A DNA stretch of 54,138 nt, taken from Vulcanimicrobiales bacterium (GTDB lineage: Bacteria > Vulcanimicrobiota > Vulcanimicrobiia > Vulcanimicrobiales > Vulcanimicrobiaceae). Below, piece by piece: positions 12,580 through 53,810 of this stretch. The notes under the pieces were generated by a model that worked only from the letters and a program-made list of their open reading frames with translations, ran no database searches and was not told where the DNA came from. Numbering within the stretch: position 1 is the first letter of the stretch; the number at the start of each line of letters is the position of its first letter. Made by a program: the position numbers and the translations under genes. The stretch spans positions 1-54,138 of the forward strand of contig JBBQQR010000013.1 in the NCBI GenBank assembly GCA_038215615.1, in the 5' to 3' direction.

Positions 12580-14094
12580 CTACATCCTTGGCTGGCTGAT
12601 TCCCATGCGCTCGACTTCTTCGAGCGCTACCGTGCTCTTATGGCGTCCGTAGCTGTAATAGAAGATCAAGCCGATAATCATCCACACGATAAACGCAAAC
12701 CAGACCAGCGGAAAGAAATTCCACAGCAGCGGATTGCCGACGCGGAGATAGAGGATCAATCCAAAGGCCGTTAAGGCCGACAGGTAGGGAATGATATAGG
12801 GACCCAACGGCACGACGAAACTTGAGGTCAGCTCGGGGTGCCGCCTCCGCAAAATCGGCACCGCGAAAGACACAAGGATGAACGCGAATAATGTGCCCAT
12901 GTTCACCAGCGACCCAACGATATTGATCGGCGTTAACGCGGCGACGATCGCGATGACAACACCGAAAAAGACCGTTGAGTAGATGGGCGTTCTCCACACC
13001 GGATGGACGCGGGTAAAGTTGGGCGGAATCAGCTTGTCGCGAGACATTGCGTACCATACCCGGCTCTGACCGAACATCATGACGAGCAACACTGTCGTCA
13101 AACCGGCGATCGCTCCAAGCGAAATGATAGTGCCTGCCCATCCGAGCCCGACGCTGTTGAGCGCGAATGCGACCGGGTACGTGACGTTCAGCGTGTAGAA
13201 CGGCACCATGCCGTTGAGAATCGCCACGACGATGATGTAAAGAATCGTGCAGACGGCGAGGCTCATGAGTATCCCGAACGGCAGATCTTTTGCGGGGTTC
13301 TTGGCTTCTTCGGCCGTTGTCGAAACGGCATCGAAGCCGATGTAGGCAAAGAAGATGAAGGCGGCGCCGCCGAGCATACCCGAGACGCCGAACGGAAAGT
13401 ATCCGCCCATTCCGGCTAAGCCGCCCGGAGGCAAGTGATAGTTCGCGCCGTTGATGTGACCGACGCCGATCGCGATAAAAAAGAGTACGATCAGCACTTT
13501 GATCATCACGATGATCCCGTTGACGGTACCTGATTCTTTTGTGCCACGCGCTAACAAGGCAGTAATCACCAGAATCGCTCCGGCGGCCGGCAAGTTCGCG
13601 TACCCTGAAACACCGGCTTGTCCGGCCAGTCCCCAATGCGGGCCGTTTGCCCACATCGGCGAGATGTTGAGCCAGCTTATTCCGGTTTGATGCAAGATGT
13701 TTACAAAGTAACCCGACCAGCCGATACTCACCGTAGACGCACCAAGCGCATATTCCAGGATCAAATCCCAACCGATGATCCACGCCAAGAGTTCTCCGAG
13801 CGTTGCGTAGGTGTAGGTGTACGCGCTTCCCGAGATCGGAATCTTGGACGATACCTCAGCGTAGCATAGCGCGGCCAGCGCGCTAACTACGCCGGCGACG
13901 ACGAACGAAATCGTAATCGACGGGCCCGCGCGCGTTGCCGAGGCAACACCGGTAAGTACAAAGATGCCCGTGCCGATGATAGCGCCGATGCCCATAGCCG
14001 TGAGCGCCCAGGGGCCGAGCGAGCGTTTTAGACCTTGTTCGGAATCGGTGCCTTCGGCAAGAATGGTCGCGAGAGGCTTAACGCGTGATAGCAT
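12580..14094 (-). CDS. APC-family amino acid permease (cationic amino acid transporter/YhdG-like)
   Basis: LKRSLGPWALTAMGIGAIIGTGIFVLTG, LCYAE, SGSAYTY, FFAYIGFDAVSTTAEEAKNP. True start is the ATG at 14094; the upstream part of the 922 aa ORF is antisense to a real gene. Confidence 0.93.
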   Translation of the reverse strand: MLSRVKPLATILAEGTDSEQGLKRSLGPWALTAMGIGAIIGTGIFVLTGVASATRAGPSITISFVVAGVVSALAALCYAEVSSKIPISGSAYTYTYATLGELLAWIIGWDLILEYALGASTVSIGWSGYFVNILHQTGISWLNISPMWANGPHWGLAGQAGVSGYANLPAAGAILVITALLARGTKESGTVNGIIVMIKVLIVLFFIAIGVGHINGANYHLPPGGLAGMGGYFPFGVSGMLGGAAFIFFAYIGFDAVSTTAEEAKNPAKDLPFGILMSLAVCTILYIIVVAILNGMVPFYTLNVTYPVAFALNSVGLGWAGTIISLGAIAGLTTVLLVMMFGQSRVWYAMSRDKLIPPNFTRVHPVWRTPIYSTVFFGVVIAIVAALTPINIVGSLVNMGTLFAFILVSFAVPILRRRHPELTSSFVVPLGPYIIPYLSALTAFGLILYLRVGNPLLWNFFPLVWFAFIVWMIIGLIFYYSYGRHKSTVALEEVERMGISQPRM

Positions 14095-14169
14095 GCGGAG
14101 CCGTTTACCCCTTGCCTTGCTACTCCCTGTCGCCGGAGGCCGCACTCGCGCGTCGAAGGCGGCGACGAA

Positions 14170-15507
14170 GTGAAAGAGTACGACGTCCTGGTGGTCGGCG
14201 GCGGAAACGCGGGATGCGCCGCCGCGATCGCAGCGGCTCGACATGGGGCGAATACCATGCTCGTCGAGCGCTACGGTTTTTTGGGCGGAACGGCAACCGC
14301 GTCCATGGTCGGACCCTGGATGACGTTTCATTCGGGAGAGAAACGCATCGTCGGCGGCATCGCACAAGAGATCGTGACGCGCCTGCAGGCGATGGGCGGA
14401 TCGCCGGGCCATCTGCGCGACTCTTCCGATTACGTTCCGACGATCACGCCGTTCGATCCCGAGATCCACAAAGCGCTGCTCTTTGAGATGATGCAGGAAG
14501 CCGGCGTGCATCTGTTGGTCCATGCGTATTTTTTGCGCGCCGTGATGGATGGTGACGGCGTTGCCGGCGCGGTCTTTGCAACGGTCGCGGGCGAACGGGA
14601 ATACCGCGCGCGCGTGACTATTGATGCAACCGCGGACGCGTACGTCGCCGCGTCGGCCGGCGTCGAAACGCAGCAAGGCGACGAACGAGGGCGCGTGCAG
14701 CCGGCGACCCTGATCTTTCGCTTGAGCCACGTCGACCTTGCGAAAACCGCTGCATACGTCCGTATGCATCCCGATCAAATGCGCACATCGCTGAAAACGC
14801 ACGAACGCACCGCGCCGGCGCTGACGGCCGTGGCCGGGCTCTACGAATTGTGGCACGAGGCTCAAGCCAAAGGCGACGTCAGCATTCCGCGCGAGGTCGT
14901 CTCGTTTTTCATCTCGCCGTATCCGGACGAAGTCACCGTGAACATGACGCGCGTTGTTGACATCGACCCGCTCGATCCCGACGATCTGACGCGCGCCGAG
15001 GTTGAGGCGCGCGGCCAGGCGATGCAGCTCTTCGACTTCTTTCGCAAGCGCGTGCCCGGCTTCGAAAACTCCCGGATTGCGGCGACCGCGACGCAGATCG
15101 GTATTCGTGAGTCGCGCCGCATCGCCGGCGAATACACGCTGACGCGCGACGACGTGCTGCAAGGCAAACACTTCGACGATGCGATTGCGCGCAGCGCCTA
15201 TCCGATCGATATTCACAACCCCTCGGGCACCGGCACGCAAACGCACCGGCTGCACGCCGGCGAGAGCTACGAAATCCCGTACCGCTGTTTGGTGCCGTCT
15301 AAAGTAGACCGGCTGCTCGTCGCGGGACGCTGCATATCCACCACGCACGAAGCGTTGGCCTCAACTCGTTTGACGCCGACGGTCATGACGCTTGGCCAAG
15401 CCGCGGGCACCGCGGCCGCGCTCGCGCTCGGAGAAAAAGTGCGCGTCCGCGACGTAGATACCGAAAAGCTGCGTTCTGCGCTCAAGGCAGACGGCGTGGT
15501 CTTATGA
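14170..15507 (+). CDS. FAD-dependent oxidoreductase (FAD_oxidored-type)
   Basis: YDVLVVGGGNAGCAAAIAAAR, ERYGFLGG, IDATADA, GIRESRRIAGEYTLT, YEIPYRCLVP, LLVAGRCIS. Confidence 0.9.
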   Translation: MKEYDVLVVGGGNAGCAAAIAAARHGANTMLVERYGFLGGTATASMVGPWMTFHSGEKRIVGGIAQEIVTRLQAMGGSPGHLRDSSDYVPTITPFDPEIHKALLFEMMQEAGVHLLVHAYFLRAVMDGDGVAGAVFATVAGEREYRARVTIDATADAYVAASAGVETQQGDERGRVQPATLIFRLSHVDLAKTAAYVRMHPDQMRTSLKTHERTAPALTAVAGLYELWHEAQAKGDVSIPREVVSFFISPYPDEVTVNMTRVVDIDPLDPDDLTRAEVEARGQAMQLFDFFRKRVPGFENSRIAATATQIGIRESRRIAGEYTLTRDDVLQGKHFDDAIARSAYPIDIHNPSGTGTQTHRLHAGESYEIPYRCLVPSKVDRLLVAGRCISTTHEALASTRLTPTVMTLGQAAGTAAALALGEKVRVRDVDTEKLRSALKADGVVL

Positions 15508-25515: not shown

Positions 25516-26310
25516 TCAGCAGCGGGCTAAGGCGGCCGTCACGTGCTGGGCGGCGCCGTTTTCATCCGACGTGATGTCCGGCAGGCGCGATTCGAAGTCT
25601 TTGGCCGCCGCCGTGGCTTCCTGAGTGGCGGTCGCCTGATTGATGTCGTGACCGAGCGGCGGGGGCCGCATGCCGGTCGACGGATCGATAGTGGCGCGGT
25701 TGCGGTCTACTCCCGGATTGGGCTTGGTATCGGCTACGGTCGAAATATACGGATCCGGAACGCCGAAGACCGCGCGGTTTGCTTGCTGCTGGCCTTCGGT
25801 GAACGTGGCCATGTCTTGGAAGTCTACCGAGGCAAGATAGCCGTTGAGATCGCGCGCAACTTTCTGCTGGCGCCACAACGCGCCCCCAAGTGCATCGGCA
25901 AATGCCGTCAGTTCTTTCTTCTCTTGGGGATCCGTGGATTTCTCCGCGAGTGCGCGCAAGCGTTTCACTTCGTCATCGGCCGAGCGCGATTGTTTCGTAA
26001 GGTTCTTTGCGAATTCACCGAGCGCGTCGAGTCCGTTGCGGCGGTGAATCGGATTTCCGTCGTCGAGGTTGACCGCGCGCAGCCGCGTGATCAGTTGCTG
26101 CAGCTGCACGTCGTTGTTGAGCGCGCTGCCGATCGCGCTGTTCGCGTGCGTGACGATCTCGGCACAACGCGAGGTCGATCGGACGTTGGCGATGACTTTG
26201 AGCGTGGGACCGGGCGAAGCCGAAACGACCGGCGGAGGAGCGGCAGCGAAACTCGCGCCGGGGCTCAAGAACGCGGCGGAAGCGGCGATGACGGCGAGTC
26301 TATATAGCAT
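25516..26310 (-). CDS. Secreted alpha-helical protein with an N-terminal TonB-box-like motif
   Basis: AGGAGAG RBS, signal peptide MLYRLAVIAASAAFLSPGASFA, Pro-rich linker, TLKVIANVRSTSR, then long amphipathic helices. Confidence 0.75.
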   Translation of the reverse strand: MLYRLAVIAASAAFLSPGASFAAAPPPVVSASPGPTLKVIANVRSTSRCAEIVTHANSAIGSALNNDVQLQQLITRLRAVNLDDGNPIHRRNGLDALGEFAKNLTKQSRSADDEVKRLRALAEKSTDPQEKKELTAFADALGGALWRQQKVARDLNGYLASVDFQDMATFTEGQQQANRAVFGVPDPYISTVADTKPNPGVDRNRATIDPSTGMRPPPLGHDINQATATQEATAAAKDFESRLPDITSDENGAAQHVTAALARC

Positions 26311-26377: not shown

Positions 26378-26809
26378 GTGAAGCGCCTCTGGGCTTTGGC
26401 CGCCCTTTTGGTCTTGGCCGGCTGCCGGGACGTGCGAGTCCAGACCCTTCGACAGGGCGAGACCGCGGTACTTGGCGGGAACGAACTGGTTGTCGTGCGC
26501 GATGCGCCCTCGCTCGATCGCCTGGGCATTCACGCGCCCGTGCGCTTCCGGTCAGAATTCGGCGTGGTGCTGCTGATGGGACCGCACGATCGTTCGGGCT
26601 ACAAACAGATTATCGAATCGATCCGCTCGCGCGCCGATCGTTTCCGCGTCGTCGCCTTCGAAGCGCCGCCCGCCGACGGCGGTCAGCCGTCGGGCCGATA
26701 CCGAACCTTTACGTTATGGATCGTTCCAAACTCGGCGTACCGGCGCGGTGTGCGGCTTGAAGTGGTGAATCCGGCCGGCGAACCGATTACATCGACGGAC
26801 CTGCCTTAA
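26378..26809 (+). CDS. Lipoprotein with PrcB C-terminal-like domain
   Basis: GTG start, KRLWALAALLVLAGC lipobox; LMGPHDRSGYKQIIESI...VVAFEAPP resembles the PrcB_C pattern. Confidence 0.65.
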   Translation: MKRLWALAALLVLAGCRDVRVQTLRQGETAVLGGNELVVVRDAPSLDRLGIHAPVRFRSEFGVVLLMGPHDRSGYKQIIESIRSRADRFRVVAFEAPPADGGQPSGRYRTFTLWIVPNSAYRRGVRLEVVNPAGEPITSTDLP

Positions 26810-26826: not shown

Positions 26827-27849
26827 CTGCGTCCGACGCTTTCGCTCGATACACAGGTTCTTGCATCCAACGCCCAAGCGTGGCGAGAGTTTGCGGGCGT
26901 GCCTGTTCGCGCGGTCGTGAAATGCGACGGCTACGGTTGGGGCACCGGCGCGATCGTTCGCGCGCTTGAAGGAAAGGTGCAAAGTTACTGCGTCGCCGAT
27001 GCCGACGAATTGCGCGCGCTGCGCGCGCACACAGATGTTCCGGCGGTTGTCTTTGGAACCGTACCGCTGGTACGTTTCGGTGAAGTGCTTGACGCTGGCG
27101 GCCAGCCTTCGGTTTCCAACGCGCAAGAGCTCGCAGCTGCAGCGCAATGGTTTCGCGCGCATTCCAAACCGTTGCGCCTGCGCGTCGGCGTGCGAATGGC
27201 GGCTGCGTGGAGCGGGCTCGATCCGCAAGACGTCGCGCGCTTCGCTTCCGAATTGCACGCAGCGTCGGCCGACGTAGAAGCATGGACGCACCTCACCGAC
27301 GTGGATGACGCGCCACGGCAGTTGGGCATTTTCGAAAAAGCTTTGGGCGAGCTTTCGCGCGCCGGCGTGCGCGTCACGGATACCGATCTCTGCAGCACCT
27401 TTCCGCTGGCCCGCGGAATCCGCAAGGGCTCGTCGGTCCGGATCGGCGTCGGACTTTTCGGAGCCACCGGCGGAACCGTGGTTCCGGGAGTTGCGTGCGC
27501 GCTGCGATTTAGCGCTCCGGTTCTTCGCATCGAGCGACATTCGGCGGGGACACGGATAGGGTATGGGGGTACCATGCTCGAGATGGATAGCACGGTCGCT
27601 ATGCTCCGGTGCGGTTTCGGCGACGGATTGCCCGCGAGCATGGAGGGGAAAAATGGCGTGCTAATGGCCGGCATGCAGTACTCCGCCGTGCACGCCGACG
27701 CGCTCAATGCGGACGCGCGCGAACACGTTTGGCTCGATCGCGACGCCGATCTGGACGAGTTCGCGGGTGCCGCCGGACGGCCGGTCCACGAGATCGTCAC
27801 CGATCTCGGAAGCTGTGCCCGAGCGGCCTTGTCAGAAGAAACGGTGTGA
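26827..27849 (+). CDS. Alanine racemase family protein (divergent)
   Basis: RPTLSLDTQVLASN upstream of the ORF call, AVVKCDGYGWG (PLP Lys), VRIGVGLFG, IGYGG, GFGDG. Start inferred at CTG 26827. Confidence 0.8.
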   Translation: MRPTLSLDTQVLASNAQAWREFAGVPVRAVVKCDGYGWGTGAIVRALEGKVQSYCVADADELRALRAHTDVPAVVFGTVPLVRFGEVLDAGGQPSVSNAQELAAAAQWFRAHSKPLRLRVGVRMAAAWSGLDPQDVARFASELHAASADVEAWTHLTDVDDAPRQLGIFEKALGELSRAGVRVTDTDLCSTFPLARGIRKGSSVRIGVGLFGATGGTVVPGVACALRFSAPVLRIERHSAGTRIGYGGTMLEMDSTVAMLRCGFGDGLPASMEGKNGVLMAGMQYSAVHADALNADAREHVWLDRDADLDEFAGAAGRPVHEIVTDLGSCARAALSEETV

Positions 27850-28949
27850 TGCAGGCACGCGCTACGGACGAACTCGACGTCGAGGTTCAGCGCCTCGGAT
27901 TGGCGCTCGAGCCCAACAGCGATCCCTCCGAGGCCGAAGGTACGCTCAATCCGGCGTGCGCGCGTACGCGCGAGAACGAGCTGCTGCTTTATCCGCGGGA
28001 CGTAGCCCACGGAAATATTTCGCGCGTAGGGCGTGTCCGTGCAGTTGCAAACGGCGATCGTTTTTCATTCAACCGCGACGGCTTCGTGCTCGAGCCAAGT
28101 GCCGTGTACGAATTGCGCGCGACCCCGGGATATGGCTGCGAGGATCCGCGCGTCACGTTTATTGCAGCGCTCGACGCATACGTGATGTCGTACACCGCAT
28201 TTGGTCCGCAAGGTCCGCGTATTGCGATCGCGCTCTCCAAAGACGGCTATACGTTCGAGCGCGTCGGTAAATTGGTTTTCGACAAACCGGGAATGCACAT
28301 CGGCGACGACAAGGATGCGGCGTTCTTTCCCGAGCCGGTGCGATCGCCGGGCGGCGTTACGTCGCTCGCGTTCTATCATCGTCCCATGCTGCATCTTTCC
28401 GCGGTTGACGGCCGCGCGTCGATCCCGATCATCGAGCGCATGCCGTATCGCGATCGCGAATCGATTCGAATCGGCTACATTCCGTTCGAGCCGGCGCTCA
28501 AGGATCGCGCGAAGCTGCTCGATGTTTGTGAAAGCGAGCTCGCCGTTGCGCCCGACGGCAATTGGGGATCGCTCAAAGTCGGATGCGGAACGCCGCCGGT
28601 GCGCATCGATGAAGGGTGGATGTCGATTTTCCACGGCGTTGACGTGGTAGGCGAAGGCACGAAGCCGAAGCTGCGCTATCGCGCCGGCCTGGTGATTCAT
28701 GACGCGCAGGACCCGCTCAAGATCGTCTATCGTTCGCCTCGCCCCATCCTCACGCCTGAAGACGAATCGGAGCTGCACGGCATCGTCGAAAACGTCGTGT
28801 TTCCGACGGGCATCGATCCGCGTCCGGAGCTCGGTCCGCGCGTTTTCGATTTCTATTATGGAATGGCGGACTGGTCGATTGGAGCGGCCCGTCTTACGCT
28901 CGGGGGAGGGCCCGGCACCCAGCGCGAGCCCGCCGAAAGCGCTGCTTAG
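27849..28949 (+). CDS. GH130-like glycosidase/glycoside phosphorylase
   Basis: LNPAC, GCEDPRVT, DDKDAAFFPE, KVGCGTPPV, NVVFPTG, YYGMAD; TGATG coupling. Confidence 0.85.
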   Translation: MQARATDELDVEVQRLGLALEPNSDPSEAEGTLNPACARTRENELLLYPRDVAHGNISRVGRVRAVANGDRFSFNRDGFVLEPSAVYELRATPGYGCEDPRVTFIAALDAYVMSYTAFGPQGPRIAIALSKDGYTFERVGKLVFDKPGMHIGDDKDAAFFPEPVRSPGGVTSLAFYHRPMLHLSAVDGRASIPIIERMPYRDRESIRIGYIPFEPALKDRAKLLDVCESELAVAPDGNWGSLKVGCGTPPVRIDEGWMSIFHGVDVVGEGTKPKLRYRAGLVIHDAQDPLKIVYRSPRPILTPEDESELHGIVENVVFPTGIDPRPELGPRVFDFYYGMADWSIGAARLTLGGGPGTQREPAESAA

Positions 28950-29430
28950 GTTTTATGCGATCTCGGCGGCCATCGTTTTCACGGCTGCGCTGATCATCGC
29001 CGGTTACGCCAATCGCGATCGTTTTGCGCTCAAGATCGCTTCCGTCACCGCATCGGTTCCACCCAAGGCCGCGCCAGCCCAAGCTGTTGCGCGCCGGCGC
29101 GAGCGCGCTTTCGGCCTAGCGGCTCCCTGGGTGCTCTCGGCGCTGCCCGAGTGTTTGCGCCAGACGTATGAAGCGGTCGGCACCCGCGCTTACGTCGCTT
29201 CGCGAATTCCACCGGGCTACGTGGCGCAGCCGGCGGGAGTTCGGCTGCAATTCGCGGACTGCACGCTTTCCGTCCGCGAAACCGTCGTACTGGTCCGTCG
29301 CGGCGCCGACAAATACTACATTCCGCCGCCCTCGCAACTCTTCAAGCGCGCGTCTTCGATCGCGCTGATGCACGAAGCGGGGACGCGCGCGATTCTGCGC
29401 ATTTACGAACCGGCCCCGCCGGGTCTGTAG
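28942..29430 (+). CDS. Hypothetical membrane-anchored protein
   Basis: N-terminal TM helix (FYAISAAIVFTAALIIAGY), two Cys; its stop abuts the prfC start. Start uncertain. Confidence 0.6.
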   Translation: MLRFYAISAAIVFTAALIIAGYANRDRFALKIASVTASVPPKAAPAQAVARRRERAFGLAAPWVLSALPECLRQTYEAVGTRAYVASRIPPGYVAQPAGVRLQFADCTLSVRETVVLVRRGADKYYIPPPSQLFKRASSIALMHEAGTRAILRIYEPAPPGL

Positions 29431-50682: not shown

Positions 50683-50756
50683 ACATTATGAAATGGTTTA
50701 GCCGACGCAAAGCTGCGGCGGTATCGCCGCGGCCACTCTTCCATATAGGAGGACGC

Positions 50757-53700
50757 GTGAGCAAATATATCCGCATCTTGTGCGTTTTAGCTCTCGCCAT
50801 TGTTACCGTCGGACCCGTAAGCGCGGCGACGGTCACAGGCAGCACGACGCTAATCGCCCAGGCGCAGTCCGCCTCGGTCTCCGGCAGAATCACCGATTCT
50901 TCAACCGGCGGCCCGGTGGTCAATGCAACAGTTTCACTGAAGGGACCGTCGCCGTACACAGCTACGACCGACGCTTCAGGCAGTTTTCAAATAAATAACG
51001 TCACACCCGGCATCTATTCCGTTGCGATTACAAAACCGGGATACAATGCGCTGACCGAGAGCACGCTCGTCGTGCTGGCGGGGGGCACGCCCAATATCAG
51101 CGGCCAGATGCAGCCAATTACATTCACCACGCTGCGCACGATTGCGTCGGTGCGTTCGACGGGCCGCGGCACGTTCAACGTTACGCCGGCATCGGTCAAC
51201 GTCGTGACCGCGCAAACGATCCAAGAACAGGGTCAGGCGCAGGTCATGAACGTGCTCAACCAGACCCCGGGTATCGTTGCGAGCTATCCGTCGTCAAGCG
51301 CCAACGGCGCGGCGCCGGGTGCGATCACGTTCCCGGATATCCGCGGTGCGCTGTCGTTTGAAACGGCCGCGCTCGTCGACGGACACCCGGTTTCGGTCGG
51401 TACGTTCGGTGACTATGTCTCGACGTTCATCCCGGCATTCATGCTGGGCAACATCGAAGTCGTCAAAGGCCCCGGCGTCGAGGCGCCCAACGTGAACTAC
51501 GCCATCGGCGGCACGGTGAACTACGGCACCAAGGAACCGACGTACACACCTCAAGGCTTCATCGGCCTGGGCGCGGACAACCGCGGCGGTACGCTGATCC
51601 ATTTCGACTTCACCGGAACCACGGGCCGCTTGGGATACGTCTTTGCCTACGCAAACGACAATCTCTCATCGGGACTCAATGGGTACCAAGCCATGATCTC
51701 GCCGTCCCAGGGTACAACCGGTATCCTAAACTGGAACGGCACCACGGGACGCTCGGTGGCGTTCAACGACGCCACCTTCTATGGAGGGTCGTCGCCATTC
51801 GCCATCCCGGGAACGATCTCGACGACGTTCAACAGCTTCAACCTGATCGCGTGCTGCGAGCCGATTCAAGACCTCTACCAAAACAAAGCGGCCTTGCTGA
51901 AGCTGCGCTATAAAACGTCGCCGGTCACATCGGTGACCTTCACGTACTTCGGCGCGCAAAGCTATGCCAACCAGGATGCGAACACAGGCGACGTTCCGCC
52001 TGGCTCGCAGTTCTGCTCGCCGGGCACCGTCACGGGAACCGGATCTGCGGCCACGATCAACTGCACGAACGCCTCGTACACGGGGCCGATTCCCAACAAC
52101 AGTCCCCAGCAAGTGATCTTCGCGCGGCCCGGACGTCAGCGCGAGGTGCAGAACGAGCCGATTATCATGGGCGACATTCGTACCTCAATGGGCAACGACA
52201 CGTTGCTCGCGCGGTACTACGCTGCCGGCATCCACCGGCTGCTGTACGAAGGTTCGGATAGTCCGAATGTTCCGGAAATCCTGAACCTTGCGTTCTACGG
52301 AAACGACACATCGACGGGCCAAACGTTCAACGGCGAAACCGTTCCGGTCGCGTTCTTCAACTACTTCAACCAAGCTGAAGACGACGTGCTGCACGGCTGG
52401 TCCATGGAATGGAACCACCCGTTCAATTCGACCAACTCGCTGACGGTCGCGGTCGACCAAACGAGCTCATCCACGGTCAGCTATAGCGTCGGTTCCAACA
52501 GCACGAGCGCGAACTCGAACATCAACATCTCGTCGTTCGCGACTCCCAACTTCAGCGTAACCCTGCCGAAGGGTTCGACACAGCTCTTCAGCACCGCGAT
52601 GGCGCGGCTGCAGTGGCAGCTGAGCCCGAAATGGAACGCGAGCCTGGCAGGCTACTACAACATCTACAACAGCACGTATCCGACGCAGTCGGTCAACGGC
52701 GGCTCTGGAGCCAACGCCTGTCAATTCAACGGAACGAATTGCGTATTCGGAAGCTCGATCACCAACCACTGGGACGAACGGATCGCGTTCGAGTACCGCC
52801 CGAACGCCAACCTCGCGTTGCGCGCCTCGGCGGGCAGTGCGATCGCGCCGCCGTATCTGCAGTTGCTCTCCGGCTTGGCCGGAGCGATCTCATACGCATC
52901 GGCGACCAACACGGCGACGCAGCGTATCAACACGGGCGGCCTGAAACCGGAGACGGCTTTTGGGTATGACGTCGGCGGCGACTATCGTTTCCGAGACGGC
53001 ATCACGACGCTCTCCGGGGACGTCTACCTGACCAACTTGCAGAATCACTTCTTGACCTACACCTACGACAGCGGTCAGAAGTGTCCGCAGTTCGATCCGG
53101 TGAACGGTGCCAACACGGGCGCCTGCTTCACCAACGGAGCGGAGCTGTTCTACACCTCGAATCGGAACCTCGCCGATGCCCGTTTTGAAGGGGTTGAATT
53201 CTCCCTCAAACACCGGCCATTGGTCGGATTCGGCTACACGGTTCAGGGTGCCGTACAGCGCGCCTATGCGTACGCCTTGCCGGCGTGCTTCTATAGCACG
53301 GCCATCAGCGCCACGACGCATCAGATAGACTGCACGCAGTTCAACACGAACCTCGCGATCATTCCGGGACAAAATTTCACCGGCAACGGGATCGGCGGCA
53401 ACGGCTGCGGATGCAACGGGTTCAGCAACCACTCGATCCCGTACTCGCAAGGGTACGCTGAACTCAACTACCGTTTCACCGGCGGAAGCTCGGTCTATGT
53501 CGGAGGAACGCTCCTTGGCAACAACAACTCGTTGAGAGTCCCGGCCTTCTGGCAGTACAGCGCCGGAACGACCATCCAACTCCACAACGGATTAGCGCTG
53601 CAAGTCAACGGATCCAATATCACCAACCAGTACTCCGGCGTGTGGCCTTCGTTCGGCGGTGGCATCCCCGCTCCGATCGCCGGTCTCACTCCGGCCGCAA

Positions 53701-53810
53701 CAGCCAACGGTCTAACCAACCAGTACACGGCAATGTGGGGCCAGGTACTCGGGCCGTCGCGCTGGCAGTTCCAACTGATCAAGCGTTTCGGAGGAAACAC
53801 CAACCCGTAA
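50757..53810 (+). CDS. TonB-dependent receptor with carboxypeptidase-regulatory-like N-terminal extension
   Basis: AGGAGG RBS then GTG 50757; signal peptide; SVSGRITDSSTGGPVVNATV; plug TPASVNVVT...LNQTPGI...IRG...LVDGHP...IEVVKGPG...IGGTVN; barrel motif LKPETAFGYDVG. Confidence 0.92.
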   Translation: MSKYIRILCVLALAIVTVGPVSAATVTGSTTLIAQAQSASVSGRITDSSTGGPVVNATVSLKGPSPYTATTDASGSFQINNVTPGIYSVAITKPGYNALTESTLVVLAGGTPNISGQMQPITFTTLRTIASVRSTGRGTFNVTPASVNVVTAQTIQEQGQAQVMNVLNQTPGIVASYPSSSANGAAPGAITFPDIRGALSFETAALVDGHPVSVGTFGDYVSTFIPAFMLGNIEVVKGPGVEAPNVNYAIGGTVNYGTKEPTYTPQGFIGLGADNRGGTLIHFDFTGTTGRLGYVFAYANDNLSSGLNGYQAMISPSQGTTGILNWNGTTGRSVAFNDATFYGGSSPFAIPGTISTTFNSFNLIACCEPIQDLYQNKAALLKLRYKTSPVTSVTFTYFGAQSYANQDANTGDVPPGSQFCSPGTVTGTGSAATINCTNASYTGPIPNNSPQQVIFARPGRQREVQNEPIIMGDIRTSMGNDTLLARYYAAGIHRLLYEGSDSPNVPEILNLAFYGNDTSTGQTFNGETVPVAFFNYFNQAEDDVLHGWSMEWNHPFNSTNSLTVAVDQTSSSTVSYSVGSNSTSANSNINISSFATPNFSVTLPKGSTQLFSTAMARLQWQLSPKWNASLAGYYNIYNSTYPTQSVNGGSGANACQFNGTNCVFGSSITNHWDERIAFEYRPNANLALRASAGSAIAPPYLQLLSGLAGAISYASATNTATQRINTGGLKPETAFGYDVGGDYRFRDGITTLSGDVYLTNLQNHFLTYTYDSGQKCPQFDPVNGANTGACFTNGAELFYTSNRNLADARFEGVEFSLKHRPLVGFGYTVQGAVQRAYAYALPACFYSTAISATTHQIDCTQFNTNLAIIPGQNFTGNGIGGNGCGCNGFSNHSIPYSQGYAELNYRFTGGSSVYVGGTLLGNNNSLRVPAFWQYSAGTTIQLHNGLALQVNGSNITNQYSGVWPSFGGGIPAPIAGLTPAATANGLTNQYTAMWGQVLGPSRWQFQLIKRFGGNTNP

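Follow-up and report, generated by a model that had tools for sequence, protein, structure and literature searches.

A TonB-box-like motif shared by TonB-dependent receptors and predicted secreted, soluble proteins of two unrelated folds in the Eremiobacterota

TonB boxes have been described on outer-membrane transporters and on toxins that exploit these transporters. A motor of this type has, in excerpts of the sources, TolB with TolA as its native soluble client (PMC12905483, PMC7391070). Through its N-terminus, soluble TolB contributes a strand to TolA, as a TonB box does, again according to excerpts (PMC7391070, PMC12905483). The soluble periplasmic binding proteins FhuD and BtuF were reported to bind TonB (PMC3813593, in excerpt), and PopC has been tied to TonB, but the box in that case sits on the transporter Oar (PMC6434023, in excerpt); the excerpt of PMC12036975 deals with the FecA box only. 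Here, we analyzed P0001, a gene of a Vulcanimicrobiales bacterium (assembly GCA_038215615.1) that lies in a 54,138-nucleotide stretch of contig JBBQQR010000013.1 (the window) and encodes a predicted secreted protein with a near-copy of a motif from a TonB-dependent receptor of the same window. An original prediction, made from the sequence alone, had proposed that this protein may be coupled to TonB and knew of no described family of this kind; likewise, in the literature that we searched, with incomplete coverage, no native soluble family with a receptor-type TonB box was described. Named homologues of P0001 belong to Candidatus Eremiobacterota (Rubrimentiphilum, 93% identity, and Baltobacteraceae), and a cultured member of the host phylum possesses an outer membrane (PMC9758169, in excerpt).

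The two 13-residue segments that the original prediction had singled out were located and translated as claimed (Table 1). They are identical at 9/13 residues and 20/39 bases, so that a recent DNA duplication between them could be ruled out. In the window receptor, the motif (residues ~148-160) lies, as had been stated, between an N-terminal CarboxypepD_reg-like extension (residues 63-138) and the Plug domain (from residue 166). Across the 660,454 windows of the proteome (source genome G000: 54 contigs, listed as 100% complete, ~2,223 predicted genes), the P0001 segment was the sole non-self match to the receptor segment at 9/13, with 0.014 such matches expected, and the next best match, at 8/13, was found in another receptor. 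This expectation holds for one query that was picked after the fact, so that the figure overstates the case, and it is not relied on alone. A profile made from the seven scorable receptor boxes of the genome returned P0001 and one of its paralogs as the top two non-receptor matches among the 2,223 genes, with 2 non-receptor matches above 17 bits compared to 0.4 in shuffled sequences. Furthermore, a broader profile, for which 29 receptors from other genomes were used (with one motif mis-picked), had a 2- to 5-fold higher density of matches in proteins whose N-terminus is signal-like, and 6/6 matches above 8 bits that had at least three Pro residues upstream sat in signal-like proteins, one of which is apparently a receptor fragment. 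The motif shared between P0001 and the receptors is real and exceeds chance.

The receptor motif is a regular feature of its position. All 7/7 receptors of the genome with an intact N-terminus contain L-[RK]-[TI]-I-[AG]-x-[VM] immediately ahead of the plug (one more Plug match, the eighth, is truncated by a contig start and was unscorable), and the motif is strongly conserved in an alignment of the window receptor with 120 listed of 400 matches (121 rows; Table 1). Among 30 diverse Plug loci from 17 genomes, 23 fit a loose pattern of the motif, six were judged by eye to be variants, and the remaining locus (L178) has an acidic, Val-rich box of the classical type in the same pre-plug slot; the classical type is discussed in the excerpt of PMC6118199. 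Because of its position before the plug, the motif is likely to be the TonB box of this lineage. In two receptors that have no extension (L037 and L038), the order of signal peptide, Pro linker and box is that of the P0001 N-terminus.

P0001 itself belongs to a family with multiple paralogs and two near-invariant Cys residues, which the original prediction had missed. Homology searches returned 234 close homologues and 187 representatives at 50% clustering, and conservation was read from an alignment of the query and 150 listed representatives, 129 of which were kept (length 190-320), down to ~28% identity. The box is among the best-conserved parts of the family (Leu37 in 120/122 and Ile40 in 119/122 rows with residues at these positions), and the linker that precedes it varies in length. 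Database searches assigned P0001 to no Pfam or NCBIfam family and gave no match to a solved sequence.

An AlphaFold2 model of P0001, based on 38 sequences, had a predicted local distance difference test (pLDDT) score of 81 and a predicted template modelling (pTM) score of 0.69. It predicts four long helices over residues 47-260, in keeping with the barrel-less, mostly helical protein that had been envisaged. The linker is disordered in this model, and the box is a coil (DSSP; pLDDT 67-76 over residues 31-50) that is predicted to lie outside the helices. One near-invariant Cys residue is found where helix 1 begins and the other where helix 4 ends, from which we infer a Cys49-Cys264 disulfide. 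In a fold search with Foldseek, nothing reached E 0.001, and the clusters that the Atlas yielded (0.76-0.77) were all unnamed. Matches at the level of the bundle were obtained (Z 11-12, root-mean-square deviation 2.5-3.6 A over 126-135 aligned residues, identity 6-10%); since Foldseek found nothing at its threshold and designed bundles match the model as well or better, no homology is implied.

The same box was found on proteins of a second, unrelated fold, which had also been overlooked. Two further genes of the source genome, L049 (C6:29731-30423) and L048 (C2:126387-127328; match at C2:126351), encode predicted secreted proteins in which the motif is internal to the chain and follows a Pro-rich loop that differs in length. 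Conservation of the motif was seen in both types (Ile in 27/29 and Val in 25/29 rows for L049; Ile in 27/28 and Val in 25/28 rows for L048; loci of published genomes). For L049, the model shows the fold of the LolA superfamily (Foldseek match to 3buu, E 5e-8), and the 40-residue coil that contains the motif (pLDDT 50-60) is placed outside the sheet. Such LolA-fold box proteins are multi-copy in the host family, and the incomplete literature searched gave no paper linking a TonB box with LolA. Judged from sequences and models, the feature thus reaches beyond P0001 and the receptor, and a box that is conserved yet predicted to be unstructured in two unrelated folds looks like a docking motif. 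As separate observations, a possible third LolA-fold box protein (C23:7161-7901) was seen only as a profile match, and one LolA-like protein of the sister family f3 (L228, genome G101) is the same over the shown segment as L116 of the host family f1 (genome G087) and has Ile at box position 4, possibly through transfer or mis-binning.

Evidence on the partner of the box came from its fourth position, at which the receptors of f3 switch the key Ile to Leu. In a tally made by eye, this position was Ile in 25/26 receptors of f1 and in 7/7 further receptors from genome G011, and in 30 receptors of five f3 genomes it was Leu in 25, Ile in 4 and Val in 1. In genome G115, where 8/9 receptors have Leu, the bundle protein also has Leu; it is a genuine member of the family (probability 98.4, E 9.5e-15). 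The 19 LolA-like rows of f3 read 11 Leu, 3 Ile and 5 other residues. A weaker parallel was observed at position 5, which is Ala in 6/7 receptors of the source genome and in P0001, and Gly in 9/9 receptors of G011 and in its family member. That two unrelated families follow this one lineage switch speaks for a partner in common, which the switch does not name; the covariation argues strongly that receptors, bundle proteins and LolA-like proteins would all be read by one partner.

Our results suggest that this partner is a TonB-type domain: we think it quite probable that the P0001 box binds some TonB_C domain, and likely that soluble proteins without an import pore are handled by the Ton motor as well. 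The original prediction had offered two branches, direct engagement of TonB in the periplasm or import of an exported effector via TonB; the lineage-matched covariation supports the first, and the near-core, syntenic distribution of the family disfavors the second. Three of the refuting conditions that it had named were checked, and none of them spoke against it: homologues retain the motif, other receptors share it in the pre-plug slot, and the model shows it as coil outside the helices. The reading that we favor, with moderate confidence and by analogy to TolB, is that P0001 is a soluble periplasmic client of TonB, whose box docks as a strand and whose bundle is pulled as a unit. [quoted passage not shown] The presumed Cys49-Cys264 disulfide would clamp the bundle ends where the box attaches, and a pull by ExbB-ExbD-TonB would then move or detach the clamped bundle whole, instead of unzipping it as is the case for a plug. 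This would follow the logic by which TolA pulls TolB off Pal, here carried out by the Ton system of an organism in which TolB was not found. The least certain step is that the bundle might hold or release a cargo or partner, e.g., an envelope protein, a lipid or a cofactor. LolA-fold carriers with a box on a loop could be handled likewise by the motor.

Several observations weigh against this reading. The covariation amounts to a single lineage switch, on whose Leu side one bundle protein was read, its receptor counts are a tally and not a statistical test, and some LolA-like proteins of f3 retain Ile (3/19 rows). Within the bundle family, box positions 5 (Gly or Ala in 93/122 rows) and 7 (Val in 85/122) are looser, and the C12 paralog of the source genome has a deviant box with Glu at position 5. 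No member of the family was found in 7/9 f3 genomes, nor in 69 genomes from the phylum's other families, and the five f3 genomes searched for Plug do have receptors. The spacing of the receptor motif, I-[AG]-x-V, is unlike that of a classical TonB box, three TonB_C proteins of the genome are unlike motor TonBs, and the pLDDT of 67-76 is compatible with a packing of the box segment on the bundle. Finally, the scan with the broad receptor profile gave 138 non-receptor positions above 8 bits, and P0001 scored a modest 9.1 bits in it. These results make the motif alone a weak predictor, and the case is carried by conservation and covariation.

The TonB_C proteins of the genome bear on the question of whether force is involved. 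There are six: two beside exbD-exbD-exbB (L053, the one ExbB locus of the genome), a lone TonB, an anti-sigma fusion, a fusion with tetratricopeptide repeats (TPR) and a secreted protein. The TonB C-terminal domain of L053 has an invariant Cys pair (27/27 rows). The anti-sigma fusion (L050, C11:39904-41259) consists of a zf-HC2 anti-sigma domain, a transmembrane segment and a C-terminal TonB_C domain, and overlaps an open reading frame (ORF) resembling an extracytoplasmic function (ECF) sigma factor; it was full-length in 11/26 genomes, with two more matching the N-terminus only, and it is possibly a sensor of exposed TonB boxes. A box-like stretch in its linker was considered and not adopted, since it is kept in only ~5/12 rows. 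Because the genome encodes the anti-sigma, TPR and secreted TonB_C proteins, and because the covariation fits equally well, the box might bind TonB_C without force, as a decoy that buffers idle TonB or as the ligand of a non-motor TonB_C protein such as the anti-sigma fusion. However, this fusion is far less widespread than the bundle family, which is present in 65/70 f1 genomes, and a decoy needs no conserved 200-residue bundle with conserved surface-type polar residues; we consider this explanation unlikely.

A reader of the motif other than TonB, e.g., a chaperone, sorting factor, protease or glycosylation enzyme in the periplasm that recognizes a Pro linker plus strand, would account for the occurrence of the motif after Pro-rich linkers in several protein classes, and both the non-classical spacing and a covariation that shows a shared partner but not its identity agree with it. 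Nevertheless, the receptor motif occupies exactly the TonB-box slot even where no Pro linker precedes it, L178 has its classical box in this very slot, and the sequences ahead of the plugs showed no further box candidate, all of which makes such a reader rather improbable. It is very improbable that the N-terminus is a structural relic, taken over in the past from a receptor gene together with signal peptide, linker and box, and now capping the bundle without a partner: the layout does match that of the extension-less receptors, and the moderate pLDDT near Cys49 would suit a cap, but a cap would neither track the receptors' Ile-to-Leu switch nor occur mid-chain in LolA-fold proteins. Lastly, an exported antibacterial or signaling protein that enters neighbors through a receptor and their TonB, as group B colicins do, appears very unlikely, because the family is near-core and syntenic, with a signal peptide and without a hydrophobic hairpin (best 19-residue hydropathy 0.56; 4/129 relatives above 1.6), and it lies among housekeeping genes with no immunity-like gene seen, even though the box is N-terminal on a helical body, genomes have 1-9 matches, colicins use TonB boxes (PMC12905483, in excerpt) and weak fold matches include ClyA and YaxB, at a level that any helical bundle reaches.

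The features discussed are collected in Table 1. The signal peptide and Pro-rich linker of P0001 were read off the sequence, which begins with a hydrophobic leader.

Table 1. Positions of the features discussed; coordinates with no prefix refer to the window, and G, C and L numbers are our handles for genomes, contigs and loci
Feature	Position	Strand	Basis
P0001 gene, 264-aa secreted helical protein	25516..26310	minus	ORF translation, codon-model gene caller
Likely Sec signal peptide, ~residues 1-23, without lipobox Cys	26242..26310	minus	sequence reading, hydrophobic alignment columns
Pro/Ser/Ala-rich linker, residues 24-35, predicted disordered	26206..26241	minus	pLDDT <50 over residues 12-32
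TonB-box-like motif, residues 36-48	26167..26205	minus	family pattern L-[KRQ]-[ETV]-I-[GA]-x-V-[RHK]-[AS]; coil in model
Cys49, invariant, presumed disulfide partner of Cys264	26164..26166	minus	124/124 rows of the bundle family alignment
Predicted four-helix bundle, helices 47-79, 87-124, 128-168 and 228-260; variable loop 169-227	25531..26172	minus	AlphaFold2
Cys264, near-invariant last residue	25519..25521	minus	122/127 rows of the bundle family alignment
TonB-dependent receptor (extension, box, plug, barrel); start possibly 50757	50688..53810	plus	domain search, gene caller
Receptor pre-plug segment, the lineage's likely TonB box	51129..51167	plus	Leu 119/121, Ile 120/121, Val 115/121 rows
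Small lipoprotein gene, divergent from P0001, conserved neighbor	26378..26809	plus	PrcB C-terminal-like by language-model features only (0.92)
Heme A synthase gene ctaA and ctaB-like gene for a UbiA prenyltransferase, immediately downstream of P0001	23649..25456	minus	domain matches
L053: tandem pair of tonB genes (C3:142693-144041), two exbD-like genes and the sole exbB of the genome	G000 C3:142693-145347		
TonB_C-TPR fusion and secreted protein with C-terminal TonB_C	G000 C26:26101-27489 and C30:7999-9042		

Next, we determined the distribution and gene neighborhood of the bundle family. A search with a hand-picked alignment of 112 sequences detected it, besides the f1 genomes given above, in 2/2 genomes of f2 and in 2/9 of f3; one of these two, G127, is marked as unpublished and enters this count alone. 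The source genome has three paralogs, P0001 and genes at C3:5337-6038 and C12:5744-6550. Tandem copies of the family were also noted in G059, G018 and G114, and a near-tandem pair in G097. Within 1.5 kb on each side of the 30 best loci, ctaA was present at 24/30, ctaB at 20/30 and the small divergent lipoprotein gene at 25/30. This synteny marks P0001 as a stable core gene, and its link to heme A synthesis is only positional; the lipoprotein is a candidate partner. On account of the ctaA and ctaB neighbors, a metal or heme site formed by His55 and His256 was considered, and it was not adopted (His in 86/112 and 69/112 rows, respectively, with His55 lost in the C3-type paralogs). In the window, P0001 adjoins neither the receptor gene nor a tonB gene; in G150, a bundle-family gene lies ~0.7 kb from a receptor gene, in divergent orientation. 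A promoter and terminator scan gave nothing above shuffled sequences and no terminator between P0001 and ctaA. Elsewhere in the window, an alanine-racemase-like gene (26899-27849, plus strand) is shortened or lost in several related loci, where the adjoining GH130 gene stays. The gene caller took a doubtful frame at 12583-15216 (minus strand) and skipped a likely gene at 28699-29430 (plus strand); the proteome-wide counts are therefore approximate.

If P0001 is indeed a client of TonB, what the motor might do for the envelope of these bacteria has to be seen beside Tol-Pal. A domain search of the source genome found no TolB_N and no OmpA/Pal matches; among five relatives, TolB_N was found in none (0/5), and OmpA-like domains were present in 3/5. 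A wider proposal, which we put forward tentatively and hold to be rather doubtful, is that the Ton motor of the Eremiobacterota serves a set of soluble periplasmic clients, drawn from no fewer than two unrelated, multi-copy families (the presumably disulfide-clamped bundles and the LolA-fold carriers), such that proton-driven pulling would load, unload or relocate envelope cargo and take the place of the missing Tol-Pal system. Native, pore-less families with a box would, if our reading is correct, extend the Ton motor from pore opening to the handling of periplasmic carriers, and would hint at how the envelope is maintained in a diderm phylum for which the search gave no TolB. The receptor motif would also define a non-classical TonB box for the phylum, with a natural Ile/Leu specificity switch. 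In addition, small soluble box proteins should be easy substrates for pulling by TonB in vitro, an experiment that PMC12905483, in excerpt, names as missing.

Among known systems, TolB with TolA offers the precedent for a soluble client of a TonB-type domain, which the original prediction had not drawn on. P0001 resembles TolB, by analogy, in being a predicted soluble periplasmic protein with a short N-terminal segment, disordered in TolB and predicted to be so in P0001, which in TolB lets the motor pull the protein off its partner. It differs in that TolB consists of an alpha/beta domain and a beta-propeller and uses TolA, whereas P0001 is a predicted four-helix bundle with the receptors' box. 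No TolB_N domain or six-bladed propeller was found in P0001, and its neighbors are ctaA, ctaB and the lipoprotein gene, not tolQRA or pal. FhuD and BtuF are also unlike P0001, since they are binding proteins of ABC transporters with another fold and, to our knowledge, have no receptor-type box. A ferredoxin is reportedly linked to TonB as well, via FusB. With TonB-dependent receptors, P0001 has the motif in common and, in the case of the extension-less ones, the entire order of signal peptide, linker and box, but it has neither plug nor barrel, and the domain that follows its box is probably disulfide-clamped and not built to unfold. The predicted topology of the bundle resembles that of chemoreceptor four-helix bundle (4HB) sensor domains and of the N-terminal domain of apolipoprotein E, at 6-10% identity and at Z 11-12, a score that helical bundles commonly reach. 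Group B colicins, like TonB-dependent pyocins, have a patchy distribution and paired immunity genes. They are barrel-less with a TonB box near the N-terminus, as P0001 is (PMC12905483, in excerpt), but they are toxins that enter from outside, whereas the P0001 family, near-core and syntenic, carries a signal peptide, and neither a toxin domain nor a hydrophobic hairpin was seen in it. Altogether, by the features tested, P0001 is neither a TolB, a receptor nor a colicin, and by analogy, it would be TolB-like in its working.
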